DNA of 64,000 bases from a virus (lineage: Duplodnaviria; Heunggongvirae; Uroviricota; Caudoviricetes): IMG/VR virus record IMGVR_UViG_2778261223_000007, positions 12,132 to 76,131 of that record, one strand, 5' to 3'. Positions within the stretch are counted from its first letter, which is position 1, and each line of letters starts with the position of its first letter. The notes beneath the pieces are model-generated. The model did not search any database, was not told where the DNA came from, and saw only the letters and a program-made list of their open reading frames with translations. This document shows, piece by piece, positions 21,812 through 58,270 of this stretch. The position numbers were made by a program, and so were the translations under genes.

Positions 21812-21840
21812 TTGATCTTCCATGTTTTCAGGCTTATATT
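21812..21840 (+). promoter_or_regulatory. sigma70-like promoter (-35 TTGATC, 17-bp spacer, -10 TATATT) for immI-like module 1
   Basis: Seen directly; start site would fall just upstream of the first antisense target repeat. Confidence 0.4.
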
Positions 21841-21996
21841 CATGCCGTCGTAGCAAATTCTGCGACCAGGTTTGACAGCCTGAATGTTAGTGCGGACAAC
21901 CGCAGATTTCCGATATTGCGGTATTTTTGTGTCCGTAAACCGCGTTACGCCCGAATTATGGTGGGGCGTGATGGGGAGGCTTCGGCCTGCTGGTTT

Positions 21997-22016
21997 CACT
22001 AACGCCAGTCTGTCAA
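21997..22016 (+). ncRNA. candidate c4-like antisense RNA core (CACTAAC-N6-CTGTCAA)
   Basis: Complementary to two repeats TTGACAG...GTTAGTG at 21871..21892 and 22039..22075, the second overlapping the RBS of the icd-like ORF. Exact RNA ends unknown. Confidence 0.35.
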
Positions 22017-22086
22017 CCCTGTCACGTCCTGCCACCTGTTTGACAGCGGGTAGCAGGTTGTTAAACCTGTTAGTGAGGCCGTAACT

Positions 22087-23884: not shown

Positions 23885-26800
23885 TTGGACAAACTACTTC
23901 ATTCAATCAGTGAAGCCTCCAGCTTAGGCGAACTGATTGAAATTGTTAGTCGGTTGCATAAATTACGTGCTGTTGCGACCTTTGGCGTCAGGAAAGCCGA
24001 TGGCGTCAGTATTCAGAAAACACGCCGGGCAGCAAATAATGCCGCAGTAAATCTTCTTAATTCCCTTCCGCCCGGCTTCGATGGGGCGAAATTAACTGAC
24101 GAACAACGTCAGATTCTTGCCGGGTATACCGGTGAAGGCGGCCTGACAGATGGTGAGGGCAGCCAATACGAATACTACACGCCACAGTTTATGGCTGAAG
24201 GTATATGGGATCTGTTTGCTGACTACGGTATTGATGGCGGGCACGTACTGGAACCATCAGCGGGCACAGGTATTTTCCAGGAGACAAAACGGCAGGGCAT
24301 GATAATGACCAGCGCGGAACTGTCTCCGATTTCTGGTCGAATAAACCAGCTTTTGCACCCGGAAGACGATGTGAATATCGGGGCGTTTGAGGCGCTGGCG
24401 GCGAAAGATGCAATGTATGACCACGCTGTTGGTAACGTACCGTTTGGTGAAGGGCGTTCCGGCGTTGCCGGGCTTGATCCGGCATATGCAAACGAGAAGA
24501 ACGTTGGCAATTACTTTGTGCTGCGCACGATCGACAAGGTTAAGCCTGGTGGGCTTATCGTATTGGTGGTGCCAAATGGCATGACCGATGGTACGAAATA
24601 TAAAAAATTGCGCGATAAAGTCAGCCGTAAAGCGGAATTTTTGGGCGCACATCGTATGCCTTCCGGTACGTTCAGCGAATCCGGTACAGATACCGTGGTG
24701 GACGTATGGGTATTGCGTAAACACCCGGAAACCTTCCTGGAGATGATCCCCGACACGGATGATTCAACACTCAAATCGGCAAACGTCCTTTGGGATACCT
24801 TCCTCAAAGGAAAATGGTTTACAACCGAAGGGAAGCGATTTGTTTACGGCGACATGGAACGTGCCAGCTTCCGCAATACCCTGGTGGTGAAAAAAGACGG
24901 TCGTGTATCCAATGAGTCGATGAAAACCGCGCTATCTCGTCGCTTTGATAGTCGCATCAATTGGGATTTGCTCGGCGTAACTACTCAGGCATGGCAGGGC
25001 GCGAAAGTGGGCGATAAACGCCTTGTAGGCGGTATCTGGCATGAGTTTGATGGTCTGAAATGGGTTAAGGACACGACAACCAAATCCTCCGCGCTTGATG
25101 TAAGTCGATATGGTGTTTCGACGTTTGGCGATCTGCAGATCGCGTTCCAGTCAACAAACGGGATTCTGGCTTTGTCATGGGACCAGATATCGGCGATCGC
25201 GTCCGACTATCCATCGGTTGTCAGTGATGAAGTGGCAGCAATGATTCGCTTTGCTGGCAAGCAGCGAGAAAAAGATAGAGAGCGCGTTATGCGCGGTGCG
25301 CTGATAGGGCAGTTGATCAACAAGGCACTTGATTTGCGTAACCTGGGGGTGAACGTTGATGACAAACTGGCAGATGCATCCCGCCTGGCGGCAGCAGAAG
25401 TTGCGAAGTATGGACCACCACACGCCATTAAGCTGAATGGGCTTGCTGAAGCTGGCGCTAAAAACTGGATGACGTTCACTGGCAATGTGAAACAGGATGG
25501 TTCCACTTCTGACCTTCTGGCAGGGCGACTTGATGTAACGGATGGTGCTGCCGGTATTGACTTTACACGTCCTGAACAAGTGATAGCACATCTTTTCAGT
25601 GATGTAGCCCTTAATCCTATAACGCTGGGAGACTTTCGTGAGGCGTTTGCTGGTGAACTGCCAGAGGACGACGACGCGGCCCTTGAATACCTGGCGAAAT
25701 TTGATGATATCGCTATTGATGGGTATGGCTGTCTGCTGCCGATGGACCGCGCCACCAGCGGCGATGTTGCAACCAAAACAGCACTGCTGGTGGGCTGGCG
25801 TGATGCGTCAACAGGTGAGCAGAAAGCGAACTTTGAGCGTCAGTTGGCGAAAATCGAAGAGAAACGCATTTTCACGCCACTAAATAAAGTCACCGTTAAT
25901 CTGAATGCCCGCTGGCTGGATCGCCGCTTGATAAAAGAGTTCTTGGCAGAGCAGGGCTATGACGAGTTTAAGTACACTGAACCTGATCTGAAGGTCGTCG
26001 ATGGCATTCTGGTATCTCCGGACGATTACGAAGGTAAGGACGGGGTATTTACCGGCTATCAGCTACGAACCGTAAACGGCAAAAACGGGAATGAGTTCAA
26101 GAAGGCCAACAATAAAGACGGCTTCCTGAACCAGTTAGAAAACTACCTGAACGGTGTTAAACCGCGTGGGCAGAACGCTAACGAGTACCTGGATAAAATT
26201 GCTCAACTGGAAGTTAGCTTTAACGACTGGTTACGCACCCACCCGCAGGCGGATCAGATAGCCCGTGACTATAACGACGCATTCAATGGTTTCATTCCGT
26301 TCACACATTCTGACGCACCGCTTGGCCTGGAAGGGATTAGTGGAAAGCGCATTCCTCTGACTTATCAGAATGAAGAAGTTCGGCGCTTGTCAGAAGATGG
26401 GCGTGGCATCATGGGATTTGGTACCGGGCTGGGTAAAACCACGACCGCGCTTGCGCTTGAGGCGTATAACTTCGAAACAGGTCGCACTAAACGCACGTGT
26501 ATTGTTGTTCCGAAGGCGGTTTATCAGAACTGGTATCACGAGGCACAGAGTTTCTACAGTGCTGATGCCTTCGCCAATATGATGTTTATCGGTTTGGATG
26601 AAGTTCGTGATGACAGCGGAAATATTCTGACCGCGCCGGTGCTTGATGAAAATGGCGAACCACGCCTCGACAGTAACGGGCAGCCTCTTACCAGAAATGT
26701 TGTGAAAGAGTCCTCCAGCGCCGTTATCGTTCAGCGTATGAACATGATCCCGTCGTCAAATTGGCGAACGGTCATCATGACAAAAGAACAATTCGCGTCT

Positions 26801-29800
26801 ATCCCGCTACGAGAAAAAACCATCGAGGAGAACTCACAGCAAGCTGTCTTTAATGCTGTGGAAATGGGGCGTCTTGACCTGGCGTCCGGTAAACACCGTG
26901 ATGCGCAGAAGAAGAACAAGATTAAGGATCAGGCCGCGAATACCGGTACAACGAAGAAGCAAAATATCCCGTACTTTGAGGATATGAACTTCGATAGCGT
27001 GATTGCCGACGAGGGGCATAACTACCGCAACTCCTTTAATGCCGGGCGTGAAGCGGGACAACTGGCATATTTGCCTAACCCGGCAGTATCCAAGATGGCC
27101 CGCGACATGGCTGTAAAAGCTGCGTACATGATGAAACGCAACAACGGGCGTGGTGTAGTCATGCTGACGGCAACACCGCTGGTGAACAGTCCGATTGATG
27201 CCTTCAACATGCTGTCTACTGTCATTCCGCAGGAAGAGTGGATGCGTATGGGCATCATTACGCCTGATGATTTCGTTCGTGTGTTTGGCAAAACAGCCAC
27301 AGTTCAGGTCCAGAAAATTTCCGGGGAAGTGGAAGAGAAGCAGGGGCTGGTGGGCTTCCAGAACCTTGACGGCCTGCGTGGTATTTTCCATCGTTGGGCC
27401 ACTCTGAAGACTGCTGCAGATGTCGGAGCGACGGTTAAAATTCCCGACATCATCGAGAACACCTTGCAGATCCCGATGACAGGGGAGCAGGAGACTGCTT
27501 ATGAAGAGCTTCGTAAGCGTGCTCAGGAGTTAAGTCGCAATGATGAGCTGACAGTCGATGAAAACGGGCATATCACTAACGACAAACCGGATGATTTCAT
27601 CTTCTCCATCATCCGTGACATGGATAAGGTTGCTATAGACCCGGATCTGTATGCCAGTGCGATTACATTCCAGTTCCCCGTTGAGCTTGCAGACCAGGTA
27701 AAAGCTATTGCTGATGCCTTGCCAAAAGTAGCTGGCGGTAAAGTGGCAGATGATGTTGATGAGGCCGAGGAAGACGGCGCTGGCGGGCTGGTCAGTACGC
27801 GTACCAGCAAGGTAGTGAAGACCGCTTTTAGTGAACATCCGACGCATGTTGAAATACGTGCCAGCATTGAACTGGAAGCTGAAATACTGAAGGCCATTGC
27901 GGCTGCCGGCATTGATATGCAGCAGGTATCGCACCCCATCCCGCCGAAGTATGCCGCGCTGATCGAAAATCTTCGTGAAGGTCTGAAGAACGGTAAGCAG
28001 ATCGTCTTTATTGATGAAAAAGCCCAGCACCAGAAGCTGCGCCGTATTATCGCCAGTGCACTGCAAATGCCGGAGCAGGAGATTGGCATTATCAATGCGA
28101 CGACAGTTAGCCAGGCTGGTGGCATCAAACTGAAGAAGGTGAATAAGCCGACCGAACCTACTCCAAACAAAAACGGTGAATACAAAGAAGGGGCATGGGA
28201 AACCTACTACAGCAAACTTGCCCAATATGAGGATTATCTCTCCGCTAAAAATGATGCTGGCCTTGAGGGCATGGAAGGTATTGCCGCCGACTATAACGAA
28301 GGTCGCACGCGCATCATAATCTGTAACAAGAAGGCTGAAGTAGGTATTAACCTGCACATCGGGACAACCGATATCCACCACCTGACACTACCCTGGACAC
28401 CAGCCAGTATCGACCAACGAAATGGGCGCGGTGCGCGCGTAGGTTCACCGCAAGAAAAGGTCAATGTTCACTACTATTGTGGCAAAGGCACATTCGATGA
28501 CTTCCGTCTGGATACGCTTAAACGTAAGAAAGACTGGATCAAGATGGTGATGACCTCCGACATGTCAGAGATCGCCAATGGTGATGCGGATGATGCTGAT
28601 GAACGCGCCATTATGCTGGCGGCAAACCCGGAAGAACGCCGCGCAATCATGGCTCGCCAGGCGCAAGAGCGTGAAGAACGTCTGAAACTGAAAGCACAGC
28701 GCGAGGCCAACAATGCTCTCGATATCTACCTGAAAGCGGCAAACGCCGCCGGAAAAGATATCGGCATGATGGAGACAGAACTGAAAAGCGCGATGGAACA
28801 GATAGAGTATTACCAGCGAAATCTTGACGACCTGATAAAAGCGGGTACGAACAGGAATGGGCAAAAATACGCGCTTGAGCAGTTGAGTAGCTACAGAAAA
28901 CGTGCGCGGGTGCTGCGGTTTGCGATCACCAGGGCAAAAGACGCGGATACCATAATGAAACGCTCTCGTGGTGATGTGGAGCGCGCTATTAAGTCTGGTG
29001 TGCTGGATATCAGTATCGATGTTATTCAGAACCCACAGGAATATATGCGCACTGACAAGAATATCCTGTTGCATAAAGGTAGTTATTACCGTGCAGTCAT
29101 TGATGATCGCGAAACAACAGCGATTGTCCGGGTGGAAAAAATTGACGGTGAAAAAGCACAATACCTCTGCCGTATCGCCTGGCTGGATAGAGCAAGTCGT
29201 TACGCTCGAGCACCGGGGTCAATCGTTACATTGCCGTTTGACTCTGTGATTGAAGCGGTAACTTTTGAAGAGGGGGTAGCTGAATCGCGCGCAACGGCTG
29301 CGCGAGGTGTTCAGTGCCACCAGCTATCAACAATACTTACTCGCGATCAGTTCTATGATGCTATTCGCAATGGGGTAATGAATGTTATTGCTGGTAAACC
29401 TGGTAATGCATGGGGCGGTGGGTCAGCTATTAAATACTGGGCATATCGCACAGATGATGGTCAGATCGCGCTGTCATCGGCCTATGATGGCGTGATAGGC
29501 CAAAAAATCGGGCGAGCATCGGATATAGCACCTGAGCGATGGATATATCCTGATGGCAACGACGAGGCGCTGAAGCGTGAAGTGGCAAAAATACAAGCCA
29601 GTGATAACCCGCTGAATATCGTGGACGGCGAGGGATTCCTCCAGGCATTGTATGGGTATGATTACATCCAGGGAATGCAGGCATGGGGCGCACAGGCAAC
29701 GATGGATGATGTTGCCCAGGAGTTCGAAAACTGGATGGCTGGGCGTGGTCTGTCAGGTCGTTCGCTTAATAAAGTCACTTCTGAAGATATTCTTAGCTTG

Positions 29801-30721
29801 TTCCGCAAACCGTCCGGAGAAGGTCTGGAATCATTCTGGAGGACCGTGCTGGCATACCGTTTATTCCAGGGCAGGATGAAAGCCTTTAGCAATATCGATG
29901 ATATTGAACGGATGTTTAATCAGGTCAAGATCGCGAAAATTAAGGCGAAGATCGAAAAAACACGTTCTGCGCTGGTGGCCTGGCGCGATGCATTGTTTGA
30001 GCAATATAAATCACTCAGTGATGCAGATGGATGGGCGGCATTGGAACAGCTGGCGAATAATGGGGTAGATGGAGCGAAACTCGCCATTGTTCAGGCTGAT
30101 AACCCCCTGGAATCACCGGCAGCACAGTGGATTAAGGTGGGGGCTGTCATCAATGCATTTGATGAAAAACACATTAGTAAGGACGATTTTGCTGATGCTG
30201 TTTCTGTTAATCGCCTGGTAGAAATGGCTACCCGCCGCGCCCGTGAGTTGAAAGACGGCGACTATGTGAATGAGTTGCCGGATACGCTCAAATCGGCAAC
30301 GTGGCAGGACTATGTATCGCTGAAAAACGGCGGGGCCACTGAATCAGAGATCGCGGAAAGGCTTGAGCAGGCTGAAAGCAAAAGAGAAGAGCAGGCGGCA
30401 GTGGCTGAAGCCAGAGCTGATGAAGCGGCGAATGATGACTATATCATTGTGGTTAATGATAAGCCGATTCGCGCTAAGGCGCGTGTTCGCGGGCGCTGGT
30501 GGAGCGTCAGCGAGGACGTTGGCGCGGTTTATCTCATTGCCGACCAACCAGGTTCCTCGACAATACGGAACGCCAAAGACGCGATTAAGAAGATTGGCGG
30601 GCGTTTCTGGAATTTTGAAGCAAACCCGGTTGCTGATGTGAACTTTGACCGTCCTGCATGGATGGTATCTACGCGTTACTCGGTAGATGAACTGCGTAAA
30701 ATAATCGCCGATGCGGCCTAA
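23885..30721 (+). CDS. darB: DarB-like antirestriction protein: N6-adenine methyltransferase-like N-terminal domain plus SF2 helicase-like domain
   Basis: 2278 aa, TTG start with GAGGGGG RBS; MTase-like NVPFGEG motif; helicase Walker A GFGTGLGKTT, DEGHNYRN box, motif VI QRNGRGARVG; size matches P1 DarB. Confidence 0.8.
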   Translation: MDKLLHSISEASSLGELIEIVSRLHKLRAVATFGVRKADGVSIQKTRRAANNAAVNLLNSLPPGFDGAKLTDEQRQILAGYTGEGGLTDGEGSQYEYYTPQFMAEGIWDLFADYGIDGGHVLEPSAGTGIFQETKRQGMIMTSAELSPISGRINQLLHPEDDVNIGAFEALAAKDAMYDHAVGNVPFGEGRSGVAGLDPAYANEKNVGNYFVLRTIDKVKPGGLIVLVVPNGMTDGTKYKKLRDKVSRKAEFLGAHRMPSGTFSESGTDTVVDVWVLRKHPETFLEMIPDTDDSTLKSANVLWDTFLKGKWFTTEGKRFVYGDMERASFRNTLVVKKDGRVSNESMKTALSRRFDSRINWDLLGVTTQAWQGAKVGDKRLVGGIWHEFDGLKWVKDTTTKSSALDVSRYGVSTFGDLQIAFQSTNGILALSWDQISAIASDYPSVVSDEVAAMIRFAGKQREKDRERVMRGALIGQLINKALDLRNLGVNVDDKLADASRLAAAEVAKYGPPHAIKLNGLAEAGAKNWMTFTGNVKQDGSTSDLLAGRLDVTDGAAGIDFTRPEQVIAHLFSDVALNPITLGDFREAFAGELPEDDDAALEYLAKFDDIAIDGYGCLLPMDRATSGDVATKTALLVGWRDASTGEQKANFERQLAKIEEKRIFTPLNKVTVNLNARWLDRRLIKEFLAEQGYDEFKYTEPDLKVVDGILVSPDDYEGKDGVFTGYQLRTVNGKNGNEFKKANNKDGFLNQLENYLNGVKPRGQNANEYLDKIAQLEVSFNDWLRTHPQADQIARDYNDAFNGFIPFTHSDAPLGLEGISGKRIPLTYQNEEVRRLSEDGRGIMGFGTGLGKTTTALALEAYNFETGRTKRTCIVVPKAVYQNWYHEAQSFYSADAFANMMFIGLDEVRDDSGNILTAPVLDENGEPRLDSNGQPLTRNVVKESSSAVIVQRMNMIPSSNWRTVIMTKEQFASIPLREKTIEENSQQAVFNAVEMGRLDLASGKHRDAQKKNKIKDQAANTGTTKKQNIPYFEDMNFDSVIADEGHNYRNSFNAGREAGQLAYLPNPAVSKMARDMAVKAAYMMKRNNGRGVVMLTATPLVNSPIDAFNMLSTVIPQEEWMRMGIITPDDFVRVFGKTATVQVQKISGEVEEKQGLVGFQNLDGLRGIFHRWATLKTAADVGATVKIPDIIENTLQIPMTGEQETAYEELRKRAQELSRNDELTVDENGHITNDKPDDFIFSIIRDMDKVAIDPDLYASAITFQFPVELADQVKAIADALPKVAGGKVADDVDEAEEDGAGGLVSTRTSKVVKTAFSEHPTHVEIRASIELEAEILKAIAAAGIDMQQVSHPIPPKYAALIENLREGLKNGKQIVFIDEKAQHQKLRRIIASALQMPEQEIGIINATTVSQAGGIKLKKVNKPTEPTPNKNGEYKEGAWETYYSKLAQYEDYLSAKNDAGLEGMEGIAADYNEGRTRIIICNKKAEVGINLHIGTTDIHHLTLPWTPASIDQRNGRGARVGSPQEKVNVHYYCGKGTFDDFRLDTLKRKKDWIKMVMTSDMSEIANGDADDADERAIMLAANPEERRAIMARQAQEREERLKLKAQREANNALDIYLKAANAAGKDIGMMETELKSAMEQIEYYQRNLDDLIKAGTNRNGQKYALEQLSSYRKRARVLRFAITRAKDADTIMKRSRGDVERAIKSGVLDISIDVIQNPQEYMRTDKNILLHKGSYYRAVIDDRETTAIVRVEKIDGEKAQYLCRIAWLDRASRYARAPGSIVTLPFDSVIEAVTFEEGVAESRATAARGVQCHQLSTILTRDQFYDAIRNGVMNVIAGKPGNAWGGGSAIKYWAYRTDDGQIALSSAYDGVIGQKIGRASDIAPERWIYPDGNDEALKREVAKIQASDNPLNIVDGEGFLQALYGYDYIQGMQAWGAQATMDDVAQEFENWMAGRGLSGRSLNKVTSEDILSLFRKPSGEGLESFWRTVLAYRLFQGRMKAFSNIDDIERMFNQVKIAKIKAKIEKTRSALVAWRDALFEQYKSLSDADGWAALEQLANNGVDGAKLAIVQADNPLESPAAQWIKVGAVINAFDEKHISKDDFADAVSVNRLVEMATRRARELKDGDYVNELPDTLKSATWQDYVSLKNGGATESEIAERLEQAESKREEQAAVAEARADEAANDDYIIVVNDKPIRAKARVRGRWWSVSEDVGAVYLIADQPGSSTIRNAKDAIKKIGGRFWNFEANPVADVNFDRPAWMVSTRYSVDELRKIIADAA

Positions 30722-32100: not shown

Positions 32101-32301
32101 TTGCGTTTACATAACGTGGCAGAACTTATCCCTGCAGGAACTAATGCTATCGCTCGTCGTCGCTCATGGCAGCAGGCTCTATGTATTGAGATCTCGAAAC
32201 GTATCAATGGAAGTTTTGAAGCTCGCAATATTGTTACTGGCGATAAGGTTCACATAACCCCGGAAAGTGCAAGCGCTGATGATTGGGAGTTTGTACATTG
32301 A
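32101..32301 (+). CDS. small protein with DUF2829-like C-terminal motif
   Basis: 66 aa; AIARRRSW ... SASADDWEFVH resembles the R..W / D.W pattern of the other DUF2829-like ORFs; non-ATG start. Confidence 0.3.
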   Translation: MRLHNVAELIPAGTNAIARRRSWQQALCIEISKRINGSFEARNIVTGDKVHITPESASADDWEFVH

Positions 32302-32597
32302 GCAAAAAATATTATGTGAGTCTGGCGTTCGCTGACGATGCGGGGAGGACGCGGAGTATCACGTTGAGCACACCGGTTCAGGCTGTGACAGCGCCGTTAA
32401 TCCGTGAAGCTCTCAGAGAGCTGGAATTGGGTGAAAACTCGGCACTGTTGTCGGTTAGTTGGTTAGGGAAAATGTCAGAGAAACAATACGTGGATGGAGT
32501 TACCCCAATAACAGTAATGAGGCTACTTTCATTGCTGCAATGGGCCATCGTACCTGTATTTATCGCGTATCTTATTTATCAGGCTGCAACACAGTAA
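32283..32597 (+). CDS. tail-anchored membrane protein, hypothetical
   Basis: 104 aa; C-terminal hydrophobic helix LLSLLQWAIVPVFIAYLIY; rho-independent terminator follows. Confidence 0.4.
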   Translation: MGVCTLSKKYYVSLAFADDAGRTRSITLSTPVQAVTAPLIREALRELELGENSALLSVSWLGKMSEKQYVDGVTPITVMRLLSLLQWAIVPVFIAYLIYQAATQ

Positions 32598-32604
32598 TTG
32601 CATA

Positions 32605-32632
32605 AAAACCCGCCAATTAGCGGGTTTTTTGT
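32605..32632 (+). terminator. rho-independent terminator
   Basis: AAAACCCGC-CAATTA-GCGGGTTTT followed by a T-run. Confidence 0.65.
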
Positions 32633-32670
32633 TTATTGCATCTTCCGATACCGTCATCAAACTAATAAAA

Positions 32671-32689
32671 TATGTTAGAAAACTAATTT
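32671..32689 (-). promoter_or_regulatory. operator-like motif (rc AAATTAGTTTTCTAACATA)
   Basis: Motif family member; 20 bp upstream of the 32711 gene. Confidence 0.5.
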
Positions 32690-32710
32690 AACAAAGTGAC
32701 GGGAACAGCA

Positions 32711-33919
32711 ATGAGTCAACACACTGATACTTCTAATCTGGAAATTATCTCGACAGCAATTGAAACGCTGCGCACACAAATCGCTCTTATACAGAAACGG
32801 AATCCTGGTGATGACCTGTCAAAGCGACTGCACGAGAGTGTCATTGCCACTACAGATAACCTGGTGGCGGAAATCAACAAGCTGCTTGATGATGGGGCAG
32901 TTGATTACAATAAGCTGGTGGATCAGTTTGAGGAATACCAACAAGCCGTTAATGATGGCTTGATCCGTTTTTCACAAGTCACAGGCGTATCAGCGACAGT
33001 TGAAAGCCTGGGTGATGCAGTTAATCAATTTGCCACGAATATGCGTAATGAGATCGGCAATCTGGAAGCGCGTCTTGAACAGGCAAATACACTGCGTAAA
33101 TCTGCTGAAGCCGATTTGAACCGTTACAAAAAAGACTATCCGCCCACCCTGACAAAGCGGCTGGATGTTGCGGAGAAGGATAACCGCACGCTGAAAAGAG
33201 AGCGCCGGGAACTAAAAGAGCGTTTAACCAAGCTCAATCAGCAATGCATTGATTATCAAGGCGAAGGCGTCACACTGCGTAAAAAGTTGGCTACAGCGCA
33301 GAGCATTATCGAAACATTAAAGCGAGAGTGCTCACAGCTTGGTCACGATCTGAACCGTGCTTGTGGCATGGGACAAAGACCAGAGACATTTCCACTTATG
33401 TATGACGGAAGGGATGCCATTGCCTACATCCATGAGTATCCGCACGGCCTGGTTGCGGAAACTGGGCAGCGTGGCGAAGCACTGCTGACGGCTAATTACC
33501 ATCAACAAATCAGAACCAATCGCCTGTTAACGATGGATGTGATCCCATCGGTATGGGGAACGCCGCTTTACTATCGCCTGCCGGGCTTCGAAAAGGACTG
33601 GAATACCGACATAGACGAATGTCTCGCAGATAAAATTATGGCGTACCTGGAGACGGATTTTCCGCGCTTATATCGCCGGATTATGGACTCAAAGGATGCG
33701 CCAATCGATGAATTAAAAATGCGTCCGGAGACGCTGGAGGCAATCAAGCAGACGGAGTTTGATACTGTATTCAGTGTGGCCTGCATTCCAAGCTGTTTCC
33801 ATGAAAGCATTCCGTTCATGCAAGGAGATCGTCGTCAGGAAATCATTGACGCTTGCCGGGTATGGGCGAACGAATGGGATAAGAAGAATGGGGGTGTAGA
33901 AGATCTTTACGGGAAGTAA
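32711..33919 (+). CDS. hypothetical coiled-coil protein, bracketed by operator-like motifs
   Basis: ~403 aa from the ATG at 32711 (frame opens at GTG 32696); operator-like motifs at 32671..32689 and 33919..33938. Confidence 0.5.
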   Translation: MSQHTDTSNLEIISTAIETLRTQIALIQKRNPGDDLSKRLHESVIATTDNLVAEINKLLDDGAVDYNKLVDQFEEYQQAVNDGLIRFSQVTGVSATVESLGDAVNQFATNMRNEIGNLEARLEQANTLRKSAEADLNRYKKDYPPTLTKRLDVAEKDNRTLKRERRELKERLTKLNQQCIDYQGEGVTLRKKLATAQSIIETLKRECSQLGHDLNRACGMGQRPETFPLMYDGRDAIAYIHEYPHGLVAETGQRGEALLTANYHQQIRTNRLLTMDVIPSVWGTPLYYRLPGFEKDWNTDIDECLADKIMAYLETDFPRLYRRIMDSKDAPIDELKMRPETLEAIKQTEFDTVFSVACIPSCFHESIPFMQGDRRQEIIDACRVWANEWDKKNGGVEDLYGK

Positions 33920-33938
33920 TGTGTTAGAAATCTAAAAT
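33919..33938 (-). promoter_or_regulatory. operator-like motif (rc ATTTTAGATTTCTAACACAT)
   Basis: Motif family member; at the stop of the 32711..33919 gene. Confidence 0.45.
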
Positions 33939-35153
33939 CACAATTCGAATGTGTTGATTGTGAAGGTAACTTAACATAGAATTTTCCTTGCTGGTGGGCG
34001 GTACCCACGTTTCGCTTGCTGGGCTTGATAGTCACTTATTGGTTATTGTTCGCCCACCAGCATTTAACAAATTAAAGCGTTAGAAAAGTATAGTAACGCA
34101 AGAGCACGCTTTGGCACTGTGCAGGCAAAAGTTCAGCAGGTTTAGTGCGGAAAGTGGTTTCAGAGAGAGCACTTTGCGGAGTAAACGACAATACATGTTG
34201 AGCCACGGAAGGTCTTTTTAAGGTGTTCATTGATGATGGTCCGGCAGAGAGTAACGGTACATGCTGCATCTAATCATCAATGCACATCTTCAACATTAAG
34301 GAGGCATAGGGATTTTTGTGGCGGTTACCTTTTGCCCTGAGTCTCCTTAATGTTGCAGTAATGCACCTATGCGGATGTGGCCTTGCATTGTGTCTTGAAA
34401 GAATGGGGTAAGGCCGGGGATATCCCCAGGGGGAGGCACTCCCGCTGCAACGAACAGCCACAGACGGCAGTCGAGTGATGGGAACGTGAAAAGACTTTAA
34501 ACCTCGTTATGGCTGGCGTGGCAAACGCGACAACCGAGACAGAGCGGTGACGGGCGGAGAGAGTGCCGCATCAAGAAAGAAGCCGACTTGTGATCCCTTT
34601 CAGCGGGCATTTGAAAGTGAATCCAACTCAGGCAGTCGGCTTCTTTCTTGTGTGAGATGTAGCGTATTTGCCCATCTTCGGGTGGGCTTTTTTAGGGTTT
34701 TCGTCATGGTTAGCGACTTTGCGGCGGTTTAGAAACCGACCATTAAAGTAAATGCAAACGATGATCTGATGATGGTAGCGGCCTAAGAAGCCAGACGCCA
34801 CGGGGTATGAGTCGTCCCCCGTCAAAAAATCGACCGCAGAGTGTCCCCGTCTGTGTATTAGGGAACGGGGAGGCATAACAGGCAAGGGCGCTGGTGTGAT
34901 TAACCAGATGAATGAGAAGGGTCAGGTCTTTCTGGTCAGCGCCCTTACCTGTTACGTCCCTCCCGCGTAACAGCCATTGCTTAATGGCATCCTGGGGGAA
35001 TTTCTTGTAACGGGTATATCCCGTCATGCTGAAGGCGCTAATCACGCTGGAAGCCAGGGTTGTGCATCCCCTGTTACCGAATTGCAGCCAGGGCGCGGTG
35101 CGCCGAAAAGCATACGGAGGTGGAAGCCCTCGCCGGAGACGTACCCGGCAAGT

Positions 35154-35229
35154 GATGGTGTAGCTCAGCGGTTAGAGCGGTTGACTGTTAATCAACGGGT
35201 CGATGGTTCAAATCCATCCACCATCGCCA
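35154..35229 (+). tRNA. tRNA-Asn (anticodon GTT)
   Basis: 76 nt; acceptor stem GATGGTG/CACCATC, anticodon loop CTGTTAA, T-loop TTCAAAT, 3' CCA encoded. Confidence 0.85.
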
Positions 35230-35231
35230 AT

Positions 35232-35307
35232 GCCGGTTTAGCTCAGTTGGTAGAGCGCCTGCCTTGTAAGCAGGATGTCAGCGGTTCGAGTCCGTTAATC
35301 GGCACCA
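35232..35307 (+). tRNA. tRNA-Thr (anticodon TGT)
   Basis: 76 nt; GCCGGTTTAGCTCAGTTGGTAGAGC..., anticodon loop CTTGTAA, T-loop TTCGAGT, 3' CCA. Confidence 0.85.
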
Positions 35308-35772: not shown

Positions 35773-35859
35773 GGAGAGTAGGGCGCATGGTGCTCAAGCG
35801 GTCTTGAAAACCGTCCCATTGCGCAAGCGATGATGGTTCGATTCCATTACTCTCCGCCA
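35773..35859 (+). tRNA. type II tRNA, Ser-like (anticodon TGA), possibly degenerate D-arm
   Basis: 87 nt; acceptor GGAGAGT/ACTCTCC + G + CCA; anticodon arm GCGGTCTTGAAAACCGT resembles E. coli serT; long variable arm; T-loop TTCGATT. Confidence 0.5.
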
Positions 35860-36844: not shown

Positions 36845-36920
36845 GGCCCCTTAGCTCAGTGGTTAGAGCTGGCGACTCATAATCGCACGGTCACCGGTTC
36901 AAGTCCGGTAGGGGCCACCA
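36845..36920 (+). tRNA. tRNA-Ile2 (anticodon CAT, lysidine type) or tRNA-Met
   Basis: 76 nt, near-identical to E. coli ileX over most of its length (GGCCCCTTAGCTCAGTGGTTAGAGC.GGCGACTCATAATCGC...GGTTCAAGTCC...GGGGCCACCA). Confidence 0.85.
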
Positions 36921-41739: not shown

Positions 41740-42777
41740 TTACCAGAGCTTCGCGGCGTACTGCGTTTGGGGGAATGTGTATCCGTAACGTTCTTCGATT
41801 GCTTTGCCGTATTTTTTACGAGCTTCATTCAGTTTAATGCCGGTCAGGTCGTCTCCAGAGGCCATCATTACGTCTAACAATTCCAGATCCATTTTATCCA
41901 GCCTTGCCATTGCTTCACGTGATGTACGTATCTTACGCTCAATGATATGGCGAATAGCCGGATCGGCATCCTCCAGCATCTTAGCGGATTTCTGCTTAAG
42001 GCTTTCATTGCGAATATCGATGTTCCTTAAGATGTACGACTTCGCAACGTAGCTTGGCTGGTGTTTTTCCAGGTCACGAACACGATATAAGTTAAAATCG
42101 CCGAGAAGGCTGCAAGGTACCGATTCGACGCCAGAATAAATTGTAATGCTCCGGCGTTCACCAACATTATTGACAACGGGGATCGTTGTCTTCGGTTGTC
42201 TTGCGAAAACCAATGCGCCATGTGCGCCAACTCTAAAGCGAGAAAGGGCATTGCTGCCTTCGATGTTTGTTGTCAGCACAACATCTGTATATGCCTCTTT
42301 ACGCGCCCGGTAGATCTCGCCTTCAGGCTCAGCTTCAAAGAAGCGCTGTTCTTCTTCAAGAGCACCTACGATTTGAGAAAAAACCCTATTTTTCAGGCTT
42401 TTCTTTATGATTTTGTCGTATTTTTTTAGCAATTGTTCACGTGTAAATGTACGTGTTGTTGTAGCGCTTTGCACAACGACATGCGTGCTTTGATTGGTGT
42501 CCTCAATGATGAATGGGATCGGAGAATATACAGACTCAACAATGTTCGACGCTTTGCCGTCGGCATCGCGGCACATGTCAACGAAGGCTTTCCATTCAGC
42601 AAGACATTTTTCAGCTTCTTCTAATATGTTTTGGTCATGCGTTAATGCAACATGGCGGAATTCCTCGCCAGCATAACTGGTATCATGGAAAACAGAGTTT
42701 GCGACCACCAGCTCTTTCCACCGTTCAGCGGTTTGCAGGAACCGTTTGTACTCTTTCTCGATCGACTTCTTACTCAT
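41740..42777 (-). CDS. hypothetical protein at the immC-equivalent position (candidate repressor or immunity function)
   Basis: 345 aa, convergent with pacB; operator-like motif 42790..42807 overlaps its start region; no recognisable similarity to P1 C1 by eye. Confidence 0.5.
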   Translation of the reverse strand: MSKKSIEKEYKRFLQTAERWKELVVANSVFHDTSYAGEEFRHVALTHDQNILEEAEKCLAEWKAFVDMCRDADGKASNIVESVYSPIPFIIEDTNQSTHVVVQSATTTRTFTREQLLKKYDKIIKKSLKNRVFSQIVGALEEEQRFFEAEPEGEIYRARKEAYTDVVLTTNIEGSNALSRFRVGAHGALVFARQPKTTIPVVNNVGERRSITIYSGVESVPCSLLGDFNLYRVRDLEKHQPSYVAKSYILRNIDIRNESLKQKSAKMLEDADPAIRHIIERKIRTSREAMARLDKMDLELLDVMMASGDDLTGIKLNEARKKYGKAIEERYGYTFPQTQYAAKLW

Positions 42778-53421: not shown

Positions 53422-53454
53422 ATGTGTTAGAAAACTAAAATCAATGTTCTAACG
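53422..53454 (-). promoter_or_regulatory. paired operator-like motifs in inverted orientation (GTTAGAA ... TTCTAAC, 14 bp apart)
   Basis: Full motif at 53422..53441 plus inverted partial copy at 53444..53454; upstream of the minus-strand operon starting at 53382. Confidence 0.5.
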
Positions 53455-57968: not shown

Positions 57969-58072
57969 AATACTGACTGTTGCGCCCTGGCATTATCGTG
58001 GGGTATATTTCTACGGCACCTTAGAAAAACGGGTGCCGGGATTGGAACCCCGGATAATGTCAAAGGCGACAC

Positions 58073-58094
58073 AGACGCCGAAAGCGTCTTTTTT
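58073..58094 (+). terminator. rho-independent terminator
   Basis: GACGC-CGAAA-GCGTC followed by TTTTTT. Confidence 0.6.
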
Positions 58095-58139
58095 GTGTCA
58101 TGCCATCGCACAGCCATACGTAGCGTTTAGCTCAGAGAT

Positions 58140-58270
58140 CAATGGTAGTGCTGGCTGGGCTGCCGAAAGGCAGGCCGGTTCCCTTTGACGCCGGTAGTTC
58201 CAACCCAGTCAGTGCTACCGCCATTGAGATTGGAACCTCACGCGGTAGCTCCTTAACTTAGTCAAAGGAG
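58140..58270 (+). ncRNA. candidate c4-like antisense RNA region of immI-like module 2
   Basis: CCTTTGAC at 58182..58189 is complementary to GTCAAAGG at 58261..58268, which overlaps the AAGGAGG RBS of the icd-like ORF; further pairs GTTCCAA/TTGGAAC and GGTAGTGCTG/CAGTGCTACC (with G-U pairs). Confidence 0.25.

Follow-up and report, generated by a model that had tools for sequence, protein, structure and literature searches.

The pmgS homologue of a D6-like phage-plasmid has its own putative operator-overlapped promoter and is followed by a candidate C1-controlled operon with a structured leader RNA

The gene under study is a homologue of pmgS. It corresponds to orf9 of Escherichia phage D6 and was thus already catalogued. 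As read from the sequence, it appears to form a single-gene transcription unit whose own promoter is overlapped by an operator, and the 14-bp motif in question, TGTTAGAAANCTAA, is most likely the operator of a D6-type C1 repressor. A second copy of this motif, located directly past the stop codon, seems to belong to the operon that follows. That operon could be C1-controlled and open with a ~700-nt, highly structured RNA of no established class that lies beside phage tRNA genes. We regard this account as a whole, including the reading of the protein given below, as rather likely.

Our current analysis covered a window of 64,000 nucleotides (the whole stretch of DNA that was analyzed). The original prediction had described a gene preceded by a terminator, bracketed by two operator-like motifs and containing the string CIPSCFH, and all of these elements are present where it had placed them (Table 1).

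Table 1. Features of the pmgS region and copies of the 14-bp motif, given as positions in the window
Feature	Position	Strand	Remarks
Intrinsic terminator closing the upstream pmgM-like/orf11/pmgR-like operon	32604..32637	+	AAAAACCCGCCAATTAGCGGGTTTTT and T-run (32604-32629); 10-bp stem; terminator scan
Putative sigma-70 promoter of pmgS	32643..32671	+	-35 TTCCGA at 32643-48, 17-bp spacer, -10 TAAAAT at 32666-71
Operator 1, putative D6-type C1 operator	32673..32686	+	Core TGTTAGAAAACTAA; covers the predicted transcription start of pmgS
pmgS-like gene (D6 orf9)	32711..33919	+	402 aa; 99% identical to D6 orf9
Long helical/coiled-coil region, aa 1-217	32711..33361	+	AF2 helices 9-29, 35-91, 100-142 and 147-217
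Conserved beta domain, aa 225-329	33383..33697	+	6-7 strands capped by long helices; possibly PH-like fold (predicted)
C-terminal (HhH)2 domain, aa 330-395	33698..33895	+	RNA polymerase alpha-CTD/RAD51 N-domain type (predicted); contains CIPSCFH
Operator 2 (putative)	33922..33935	+	TGTTAGAAATCTAA; upstream operator of the next operon, outside the pmgS unit
Promoter of the leader/tRNA/tciAB operon	33954..33982	+	TTGATT-17-TAGAAT; 19 bp downstream of operator 2
Conserved leader hairpin between operators 2 and 3	33986..34066	+	dG -33.8 kcal/mol, z -4.9
Operator 3 (operator-like)	34078..34091	+	CGTTAGAAAAGTAT, with 3 mismatches; GTGTTAGAAAAT in relatives
Rest of the about 700-nt non-coding structured leader	34092..34695	+	Ends at intrinsic terminator 34670-34687 and T-run
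Strong upstream copies of the motif	20524; 21728; 32673; 38359; 42792, 42879		repL; c4/icd/ant; pmgS; lpa; c1 (two copies)
Further copies of the motif	44202; 53425, 53441; 57466		After cre; before the pdcB-like gene, with inverted partner; ref/orf88 divergent region

Identity and genomic context of the gene

The window shares 99.1% nucleotide identity with Escherichia phage D6, and therefore derives from a D6-like, P1-related phage-plasmid. Such elements are common in E. coli and Salmonella, and the pmgS region is carried by more than 100 complete plasmids. The open reading frame ends with its stop codon at 33919 and can begin at a GTG at 32696, which is the start given for orf9 in the D6 record, or at an ATG at 32711, which is the start chosen by PGAP in related plasmids and which yields the protein of 402 amino acids.

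The original prediction could name no family for the product. By profile search, however, the protein belongs to PHROG 1660 (PmgS-like), with residues 1-401 matching profile positions 1-404 of 405 at an E value of 2.1e-146. A BLASTP alignment with P1 PmgS has just 21% identity over 408 columns (E 2e-13) but is collinear over ~400 amino acids, and a P1-type representative (P0027) was found by profile search at E 1.3e-21. Word-indexed homologue searches returned the D6 clade only; P1 and more distant lineages were reached by exhaustive profile search. P1 PmgS (P1_gp093, of the PHROG 1660 "PmgS-like head morphogenesis" family) has 420 amino acids versus 402 in the D6 type and the same architecture. 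Both genes neighbor pmgR, both are under C1-type operators (putative in the D6 type), and both lie on the same side of the map, flanked by darB/pmgM and lpa-pacAB-c1. The D6 annotation calls orf9 "similar to P1 pmgS" and a "putative prohead scaffolding protein."

The gene is kept throughout the P1/D6 supergroup and belongs to the set of 21 genes that are best conserved in P1-like phage-plasmids (PMC9603915). In P1 and D6 lineages, pmgS always adjoins pmgR; in D6, this neighbor is recognized from the annotation and from homology to PmgR. Two relatives (L009 and L010), whose PmgS proteins are 45-52% identical, have the order darB..pmgR-pmgS. The distant relatives L037 and L038 have the order pmgR-pmgS-lpa-pacAB-c1, with a terminator between pmgS and lpa. 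The adjacency of pmgR and pmgS is the same in L009, L010 and L038. PmgS is thus part of the conserved backbone of the P1 supergroup, with the ancestral order pmgR-pmgS-lpa-pacA-pacB-c1, in which the genes for Lpa and the PacAB terminase follow pmgS. A single-protein scan for related loci found none.

A candidate C1 operator dispersed through the window

When up to two mismatches are allowed, TGTTAGAAANCTAA occurs 15 times in the window versus 1.79 ± 1.36 times expected, an excess of about 8-fold, and none of 100 shuffles in a 14-mer shuffle test reached this count. With a weight matrix derived from the unambiguous copies, 15 sites in the window likewise scored above threshold, as compared with zero or one in each of 20 shuffles. 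Because copies occur at the places of P1 C1 operators (repL, c4/ant, lpa, c1, ref and pmgR-pmgS), the motif is, by position and analogy, most likely the operator of a D6-type C1. The operators annotated at equivalent places in the P1 record are Op53, Op51, Op86, Op94, Op99 and Op2. The suggestion that the two motifs flanking the gene are operator-like therefore holds, in that the copies are over-represented and positioned at early and immunity operons as repressor operators would be.

The minus strand at 41740-42777 encodes a C1 homologue, adjacent to lox/rox as in P1, whose annotation reads "prophage repressor, similar to P1 C1." This homologue is 62 amino acids longer than P1 C1 and shares 20% identity with it over 242 amino acids (E 9e-8). 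The operators of P1 (17-bp asymmetric ATTGCTCTAATAAATTT, including Op86a/b, Op72ab, Op94 and Op99) are likewise dispersed before the same early and immunity operons, and some D6-type copies are paired as well (53425/53441). The two sequences differ, however. The D6-type consensus, (A/T)(A/G)TGTTAGAAAA(C/T)TAA, has in common with the P1 consensus just a TTAGA core, which matches the reverse complement of ATTGCTCTAATAAATTT, and a few flanking positions. The motif is absent from the 29 kb of P1 DNA compared, yet all D6-type loci contain it; in L009, copies precede both pmgS and lpa. It thus appears to represent a diverged type, distinct from the operator of P1, and the diverged repressor and operator are consistent with an immunity specificity other than that of P1.

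Like the -22 box of P1 late promoters, the core TTAG-N4-CTAA forms a short inverted repeat, and the motif might instead be some other recurrent signal, such as an Lpa-dependent late-promoter box or a host-factor site. We consider this most improbable, since the copies precede c1, lpa, repL, c4/ant and ref, which have repressor-controlled early or immunity promoters in P1 rather than late ones. Moreover, no strong copy precedes the tail, head or lysis operons in the window, and the P1 late-box pattern is not enriched there.

Terminator, promoter and operator of pmgS

The terminator upstream of pmgS, which the original prediction had noted, is real. At the same position, L009 and L010 have a hairpin and T-run of different sequence, and thus the element is conserved as a structure. 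The promoter that follows was read from the sequence; its -35 element is weak and its -10 element good, and its score falls under the threshold of the promoter scan. A block at this position, ACTAATAAAATATGTTAGAAAACTAATTT, is invariant in three diverged plasmids, and L009 and L010 carry TTTAC(T/A)-16/17-TATAAT followed 3 bp on by TTAGAAA. Operator 1 matches the consensus exactly, has the top weight-matrix score of all sites in the window, is conserved in relatives, and is the positional equivalent of Op86a/b of P1. The terminator, -10 element and operator are all kept in lineages with 45-52% identity in PmgS. A P1 late-promoter box was found upstream of pmgS neither by reading the sequence nor by pattern scan.

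The P1 record states that the C1 operators OpmgRa/b "control expression of pmgR and pmgS." There, the operators precede pmgR, and pmgR-pmgS form one unit, whereas in the D6 type a terminator parts the two genes and pmgS has an operator and promoter of its own. In a lysogen, the D6-type C1 would occupy the site at 32673 and so block RNA polymerase. After induction, pmgS would switch on together with the other C1-controlled early operons. The proposal that the gene is isolated as its own repressor-controlled unit is consequently retained at its 5' end, where a terminator-insulated, operator-overlapped promoter resembles that of P1 pmgR-pmgS; the 3' motif does not form a boundary.

Control region and leader RNA of the next operon

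Operator 2 was originally taken to bracket pmgS. It is conserved in L009 and L010, again directly past the stop codon of pmgS, and the promoter, hairpin and third operator-like site downstream of it are all kept in distant relatives. The promoter is the sole plus-strand promoter-like match in a scan of 32300-35300, and its -35 and -10 elements are conserved in five lineages. The closing stem of the hairpin is kept, with a different sequence, in L009, and in operator 3 all nine aligned relatives share the column block GTTAGAAA without change. Because these conserved elements follow the 3' motif, and because the place corresponds to that of Pban with its bivalent operator Op72ab in P1, the motif is assigned to the next operon. 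Operator 2, the promoter, the leader hairpin and operator 3 together appear to be the control region of this operon and the counterpart of Pban/Op72ab. The promoter also fits the layout of P1 late promoters, as AGGTAACTT-4-TAGAAT at 33966-33982. This is one of just two perfect matches in the window to the late layout (-22 box AAGTnACTT, ~4 bp, -10), and scans with P1 late-promoter patterns revealed no enrichment in the window.

Two near-consensus sites in the same orientation flank pmgS exactly, and both might act on it, with repressor bound at 32673 and 33922 looping or clamping the 1.25-kb gene. Scanning found no terminator between the stop codon and operator 2; therefore, bound repressor could also act as a roadblock that parts pmgS from the next operon. 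Several observations speak against looping: the second site invariably occurs together with the promoter, hairpin and third operator that lie downstream of it; in P1, the homologous Pban/Op72 region does not adjoin pmgS; and in L037 and L038, a terminator and lpa come after pmgS instead. We judge this arrangement improbable, although roles of operator 2 for pmgS and for the next operon are not mutually exclusive.

The operon so controlled would comprise a structured leader of about 700 nt, then tRNAs for Asn, Thr, Ser and Met, and then tciAB. The fold of 33990-34695 has a z score of -5.7, and a hairpin at 34222-34310 exhibits compensatory changes in 6 of its 22 pairs. The leader contains no credible open reading frame, carries no annotated gene in the D6 record or in related plasmids, and matched no Rfam family either at the gathering threshold or at E<=10. 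A pattern scan of IMG/VR produced no further sequence types.

The ban operon of P1 has the same kind of C1-controlled promoter (Pban/Op72ab), a long non-coding leader ("dicF-like region"), tRNA-Asn and tRNA-Thr (trnA, trnT), and tci genes (tciABC). The last 480 nt or so of the D6-type leader, with its terminator hairpin, is about 95% identical to P1. The two systems differ in that D6-type elements have two separated operators flanking the promoter and hairpin, whereas P1 has a single overlapping bivalent operator, and in that the D6-type leader is longer by about 500 nt of conserved, structured sequence. The control region directly follows pmgS in the D6 type but dmt in P1, and the D6 annotation, unlike that of P1, shows no ban gene in this stretch.

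Domain architecture of PmgS

Approximately 215 N-terminal residues are predicted to be helical, in agreement with the proposed N-terminal coiled coil, but matches to coiled-coil families were all below threshold. Scans of the D6 and P1 proteins with Pfam, NCBIfam and PADLOC models returned sub-threshold coiled-coil matches only. Those to SMC, Rad50, JetC, LmuB, DivIVA and ERM were regarded as coiled-coil noise and were not taken as homology.

Ten sequences underlie the structure model; of the five models obtained, four were far poorer than the other. The full-length AlphaFold model is poor at residues 225-303, and a domain-only model was used instead. Foldseek searches of BFVD and the PDB gave no significant match. 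The predicted C-terminal domain has a five-helix (HhH)2 fold, for which the best structural match is the alpha-CTD; matches to the RAD51 N-domain and to further (HhH)2 domains are nearly as good. Unlike known domains of this kind (alpha-CTD, PF03118; RAD51/RadA N-terminal; HHH_5, PF14520), the one predicted in PmgS is joined to a coiled coil and a beta domain.

Among 64 PmgS family members, 12 match HHH_5 and 9 match RNA_pol_A_CTD in Pfam (profile matches 2e-5 to 3e-5), and hhalign paired the broad PmgS family profile with the alpha-CTD at E 1.9e-4 and 48% probability. The D6 sequence by itself had no Pfam HhH match at threshold, and a D6-clade profile gave no hhalign alignment with the E. coli alpha-CTD; the broad family profile alone aligned. 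In that alignment, the DNA-contact residues R265, G296 and K298 of the alpha-CTD correspond to E340, Q371 and D373, so the canonical contacts are not kept and DNA binding by PmgS is not assured. Speculatively, the nearby R338, G372 and R374-375 could substitute for them.

The original prediction had drawn attention to a cysteine pair in CIPSCFH, which spans residues 358-364. In nine homologues with 45-74% identity, the first cysteine is invariant but the second is replaced by N, E, A or V, so there is no conserved pair, and the idea of a metal or redox site was dropped. The CIPSCFH stretch is also absent from P1 PmgS.

Possible roles of PmgS

An in-frame deletion of P1 pmgS exists, and among knock-outs, loss of plaques or a change in antirestriction was reported only for pmgA, B, C, G and R (PMC9024508). 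CRISPRi knock-down of P1 pmgS gave an EOP of 1.2 (PMC10695390). The gene is thus dispensable under laboratory conditions in P1 and, by analogy, presumably also in D6. Our preferred reading, which we hold tentatively as one possibility, is that PmgS is a non-virion, oligomeric accessory factor in lytic development, around the stage of replication, packaging and head completion. At that stage, its paired HhH domains would bind to DNA or to a partner that is itself DNA-bound. A morphogenetic role would be compatible with control by C1: pmgR of P1, which is under the same C1 operators as pmgS, is essential for head completion (PMC9024508).

According to the D6 GenBank record, PmgS would be a prohead scaffolding protein, one that assembles together with the capsid protein and is lost as the head matures. 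Like lambda Nu3 and P22 gp8, PmgS is predicted to be elongated and helical, with helices spanning residues 9-217 in the long coiled-coil half typical of scaffolds. PmgS is not mentioned among P1 virion proteins (PMC9024508), as would be expected of a scaffold, and its gene adjoins pmgR. Scaffolds are essential, however, whereas the P1 deletion and knock-down lack a plaque defect. P1 is also concluded to have no separate scaffold, a function probably served by the cleaved 120-aa N-terminus of its capsid protein (PMC9024508). The gene lies outside the head module, ~12 kb from the portal and protease genes (at about 17.8-20.5 kb of the window on the D6 map), with repL, the immunity region and darB in between, and its putative operator-controlled promoter is of early type and has no late box. 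In addition, the predicted C-terminal half is globular, with conserved beta and (HhH)2 domains that would be of no use to a scaffold, and distant homologues sit among genes for DNA methyltransferase, Ant and RdgC-like proteins. These facts leave the specific proposal of the D6 record very unlikely. PmgS is unlikely to be a prohead scaffold, and "head morphogenesis" in the name of PHROG 1660 is a historical guess.

Alternatively, PmgS might be a decoy or adaptor of the transcription machinery, in which a coiled-coil dimer presents two alpha-CTD-like domains and so mimics the alpha dimer of RNA polymerase. The effect of such a protein would be competition for UP elements or for activators, or else assistance to Lpa-dependent late transcription; we think it doubtful in both forms. 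It would account for the alpha-CTD as best structural match, for the RNA_pol_A_CTD matches in the family, for the position of pmgS immediately upstream of lpa in the ancestral gene order, and for early, repressor-controlled expression. However, the near-equal matches to the RAD51 N-domain and other (HhH)2 domains, the unconserved alpha-CTD contact residues of the D6 protein, and the lack of a phenotype in P1 argue against it. The more general proposition, that early coiled-coil dimers of PmgS act as a decoy or adaptor either of host transcription or of DNA-bound partners such as Lpa or the PacAB terminase and have no morphogenetic role, seems to us similarly doubtful.

Implications

The element as a whole is already catalogued, and the current picture of P1-type biology is unchanged. 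What the analysis adds is an operator map that makes the D6-type immunity regulon open to direct checking. The database labels "prohead scaffolding" and "head morphogenesis" for PmgS should be treated as unproven. The gene is widely conserved, yet has no phenotype in P1. Its apparent combination of a coiled coil, a beta domain and an alpha-CTD-like (HhH)2 domain with an early-type promoter may provide concrete, testable hypotheses for what PmgS does in this family of phage-plasmids.

The gene and its surroundings

Region 32600-34000 of the window has 99.1% identity with MF356679, the record of Escherichia phage D6, which is a plasmid prophage related to P1. Identity with a 91-kb plasmid of Salmonella is 99.9%, and >100 complete plasmids of E. 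coli and Salmonella carry the region. Transfer of the D6 annotation yields the gene order portal and protease, repL, c4/icd/ant, lysozyme (on the other strand), darB, ulx, orf13, pmgM-like, orf11, pmgR-like, orf9, a gene-free stretch of ~1.2 kb, tRNAs, tciAB, orf6/5, lpa, pacA, pacB, c1 (minus strand) and rox/cre. The gene of interest is D6 orf9. Although the original prediction could name no family for its product, it belongs to the PmgS family (PHROGs family 1660, "PmgS-like head morphogenesis", E = 2e-146). The feature is real and its regulatory reading largely right, but the element was already catalogued.

The window also carries two separate C4 antisense-RNA loci. The a1/b1 target element is found at one locus, and an isrK-like RNA lies 5' of the other. 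On the 3' side of each are icd and an anti-repressor gene, so that this one phage-plasmid contains two immI-type modules. D6-type PmgR homologues are 97-99 aa long and have a hydrophobic C-terminal tail (..LLSLLQWAIVPVFIAYLIYQ), possibly a membrane anchor, whereas P1 PmgR has 72 aa and lacks this tail.

Features of the window, with positions
Feature	Position	Strand	Location or remark
Strong motif copy	20524		~175 bp before repL
Strong motif copy	21728		between repL and c4 RNA/icd/ant unit
C4 locus	21834-22039
darB	23885-30721		D6 annotation
Weak motif copies	31576, 31630		before pmgM-like operon
pmgR-like gene	32298-32597
Terminator	32604-32629		upstream of pmgS
Predicted -10, TAAAAT	32666-71		pmgS promoter
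Motif copy, TGTTAGAAAACTAA	32673		before pmgS
pmgS (orf9)	32711-33919	+	ATG, PGAP choice in related plasmids; GTG at 32696 in D6 record
Motif copy, TGTTAGAAATCTAA	33922		after pmgS
Promoter-like site	33954-33982		TTGATT-17-TAGAAT
Late-promoter layout	33964-33982	+	AGGTAACTT-AACA-TAGAAT
Leader	33986-34695	+	~700 nt, non-coding
Third operator-like site	34078-34091
Hairpin in leader	34222-34310
Intrinsic terminator	34670-34687		internal
tRNA-Asn	35154-35229	+	ARAGORN and Rfam
tRNA-Thr	35232-35307	+	ARAGORN and Rfam
tRNA-Ser(tga)	35773-35859	+	ARAGORN and Rfam
tRNA-Met(cat)	36845-36920	+	ARAGORN and Rfam
Strong motif copy	38359		~80 bp before lpa
Strong motif copies	42792, 42879		before c1
Strong motif copy	44202		directly after cre
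Inverted motif pair	53425-53438, 53441-53454	+, -	2 bp apart, between ppp-like and pdcB-like genes
Strong motif copy	57466		ref/orf88 divergent region
C4 locus	58016-58225

Predicted control of pmgS and of the next operon

All elements described previously (the ORF, the terminator and two flanking motifs) are present in the sequence. The terminator has a 10-bp stem and a T-run. Between it and the pmgS ATG lies a block, ACTAATAAAATATGTTAGAAAACTAATTT, that is invariant in three plasmids differing by ~10% elsewhere. This block includes a good predicted -10 element, with a weak predicted -35 (TTCCGA) 17 bp upstream and the operator core two bases further on. Two diverged relatives, L009 and L010, whose PmgS proteins are 45-52% identical, have the same layout in different sequences: a terminator hairpin, TTTAC(T/A)-16/17-TATAAT, and then TTAGAAA. 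From these features, pmgS is predicted to be insulated from the pmgR operon and to have its own promoter, with the start region covered by the operator. By contrast, the C1 operators of P1 lie 5' of pmgR, and pmgR and pmgS abut. Thus, the proposal that pmgS is its own repressor-controlled unit is supported at its 5' end, but not at its 3' motif.

No terminator was found 3' of the pmgS stop codon. The sole promoter-like site of the region lies 19 bp after the second motif, and it precedes an 81-nt hairpin (dG -33.8, z -4.9) and the third operator-like site. The order of operator, promoter, hairpin and operator is kept in all D6-type lineages examined, including L009, where the hairpin stem has a different sequence. 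In L010, a tRNA-Thr gene lies directly 3' of the third operator. The homologous place in P1 holds Pban with the bivalent Op72ab, a "dicF-like region", trnA, trnT, tciABC and ban. Given this conserved order and the P1 counterpart, the second motif reads as part of the next operon's control region, coupled to its promoter, hairpin and third operator, and had been mis-assigned to the pmgS unit. It may also block read-through from pmgS.

The sigma-70-type promoter of this leader/tRNA operon is overlapped by an exact P1 late-promoter layout (compare LP26, AAATGACTA-GCGG-TAGAAT); the window contains just one other perfect match. The operon may be transcribed in the early as well as the late phase.

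The motif as a probable D6-type C1 operator

With up to two mismatches allowed, the 14-mer occurs 15 times in the window versus 1.8 expected, and 0 of 100 shuffles reach 15. A weight matrix gives 15 above-threshold sites, versus 0-1 per shuffle, and ranks the copy before pmgS first. At corresponding places, the curated P1 record lists C1 operators Op53, Op51, Op82, Op86a/b, Op88, Op94, Op99a-e, Op2 and Op72ab, and it states that Op86a/b "controls expression of pmgR and pmgS". The inverted pair resembles the bivalent P1 operators Op72ab and Op99ab. The C1 homologue encoded in the window is distant (20% identical to P1 C1, E = 9e-8). The P1 operator, in reverse complement, has only a TTAGA core in common with the D6-type motif, which was not found in 29 kb of P1 DNA. 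However, the motif is present in all D6-type loci; a relative with 45% identity in PmgS has it 5' of both pmgS and lpa. This co-variation with the repressor, together with the positions at P1 operator places, suggests that the D6-type C1 repressor most likely uses this motif as its operator. A late-promoter box was rejected, as the motif stands before immunity and early genes, and the window shows no enrichment of the P1 late-box pattern.

Architecture and possible role of PmgS

P1 PmgS aligns end to end with the D6-type protein at 21% identity, and an exhaustive profile search yielded 86 clusters (at 50% identity) of proteins of 350-470 aa with the same layout. Conservation within the D6 clade is far higher in the C-terminal half than in the N-terminal half. 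The CIPSCFH cysteine pair, previously singled out, is not a family feature, as its second Cys varies within this clade. The full-length model has helices at residues 9-217 and a poorly modelled middle. A second model, covering residues 212-402, is good enough to use (pLDDT 79.8, pTM 0.77) and contains six or seven strands together with long helices and, at the C-terminus, a helical domain.

Independently of the models, 12 of 64 family members match Pfam HHH_5 and nine match RNA_pol_A_CTD. The family profile matches the RAD51 N-domain, RpoA and the Brr2 helix-hairpin-helix (HhH) region at 2-5e-5, and hhalign pairs the last ~65 residues with E. coli alpha-CTD (E = 1.9e-4). DNA binding is plausible at most, because D6 PmgS itself falls below Pfam thresholds for HhH/alpha-CTD and does not keep the alpha-CTD DNA-contact residues in the hhalign alignment. 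A 449-aa Shigella flexneri protein (P0011) matches PmgS at 100% identity across 17% of its length and carries a fused PF21446 domain; it presumably comes from a rearranged D6-like plasmid.

The D6 record labels orf9 a "putative prohead scaffolding protein". In P1, an in-frame pmgS deletion has been made, and among 29 knock-outs plaque formation was lost only in pmgA, B, C, G and R, with antirestriction unchanged in the others (Gonzales et al., PMC9024508). Knock-down of P1 pmgS by CRISPRi gave an EOP of 1.2 (PMC10695390). No separate scaffold was found in P1, and the cleaved 120-aa N-terminus of its capsid protein has been proposed instead (PMC9024508). In light of these data, the label is poorly supported. 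Repressor control alone is compatible with a morphogenetic accessory role, since P1 pmgR is needed for head completion yet is under the same C1 operators as pmgS.

The genomic context is mixed. The conserved backbone pmgR-pmgS-lpa-pacA-pacB-c1 of the P1/D6 supergroup is uninterrupted in two distant contigs of the P1 supergroup (L037, 5001-6679; L038, 482-6119), the c1 position being held by a c1-like gene. Because pmgS directly precedes lpa there, whereas tRNA/tci fills the gap in D6 and pap...pdcB fills it in P1, the junction appears to be a hot spot for insertions. In phages more distant still, the neighbours of pmgS include genes for DNA methyltransferase, anti-repressor and RdgC-like proteins. 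Our best guess, tentatively held, is that PmgS would be an oligomeric accessory factor that is not part of the virion and whose HhH domains act, in the course of lytic growth, on DNA or on a partner bound to DNA. PmgS might alternatively be a transcription decoy or an anti-defence factor. The domain architecture, and the doubt that it casts on the database name, are modestly new.

A candidate structured leader RNA

The third operator is followed by ~600 nt with no credible ORF and by the intrinsic terminator. After a further ~460 nt come the tRNA genes. The leader between the putative C1-controlled promoter and this terminator is better conserved among D6-like plasmids than neighbouring coding sequences, and its indels are not multiples of three. 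Its fold has a z of -5.7 over 706 nt, and one hairpin has compensatory changes in 6 of 22 pairs (seven sequences). The leader, found only in D6 and 121 D6-like plasmids, matches no Rfam family.

The tRNA genes share a strand with pmgS and with tciAB, which lies 3' of them. The D6 GenBank record has its three tRNAs on the other strand and omits tRNA-Met, which is probably an annotation error.

What is new here is this conserved, strongly structured leader 3' of pmgS, a candidate for a new structured RNA that neighbours phage tRNA genes. The stretch from its terminator hairpin to tRNA-Asn (34670-35153) is ~92% identical to ~500 P1-like plasmids and ~95% identical to P1 68880-69347, despite PmgS, encoded by the flanking gene, being only 21% identical. 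Such similarity in a non-coding stretch implies either that a tRNA/leader module was recently exchanged between the P1 and D6 lineages or that constraint is very strong.
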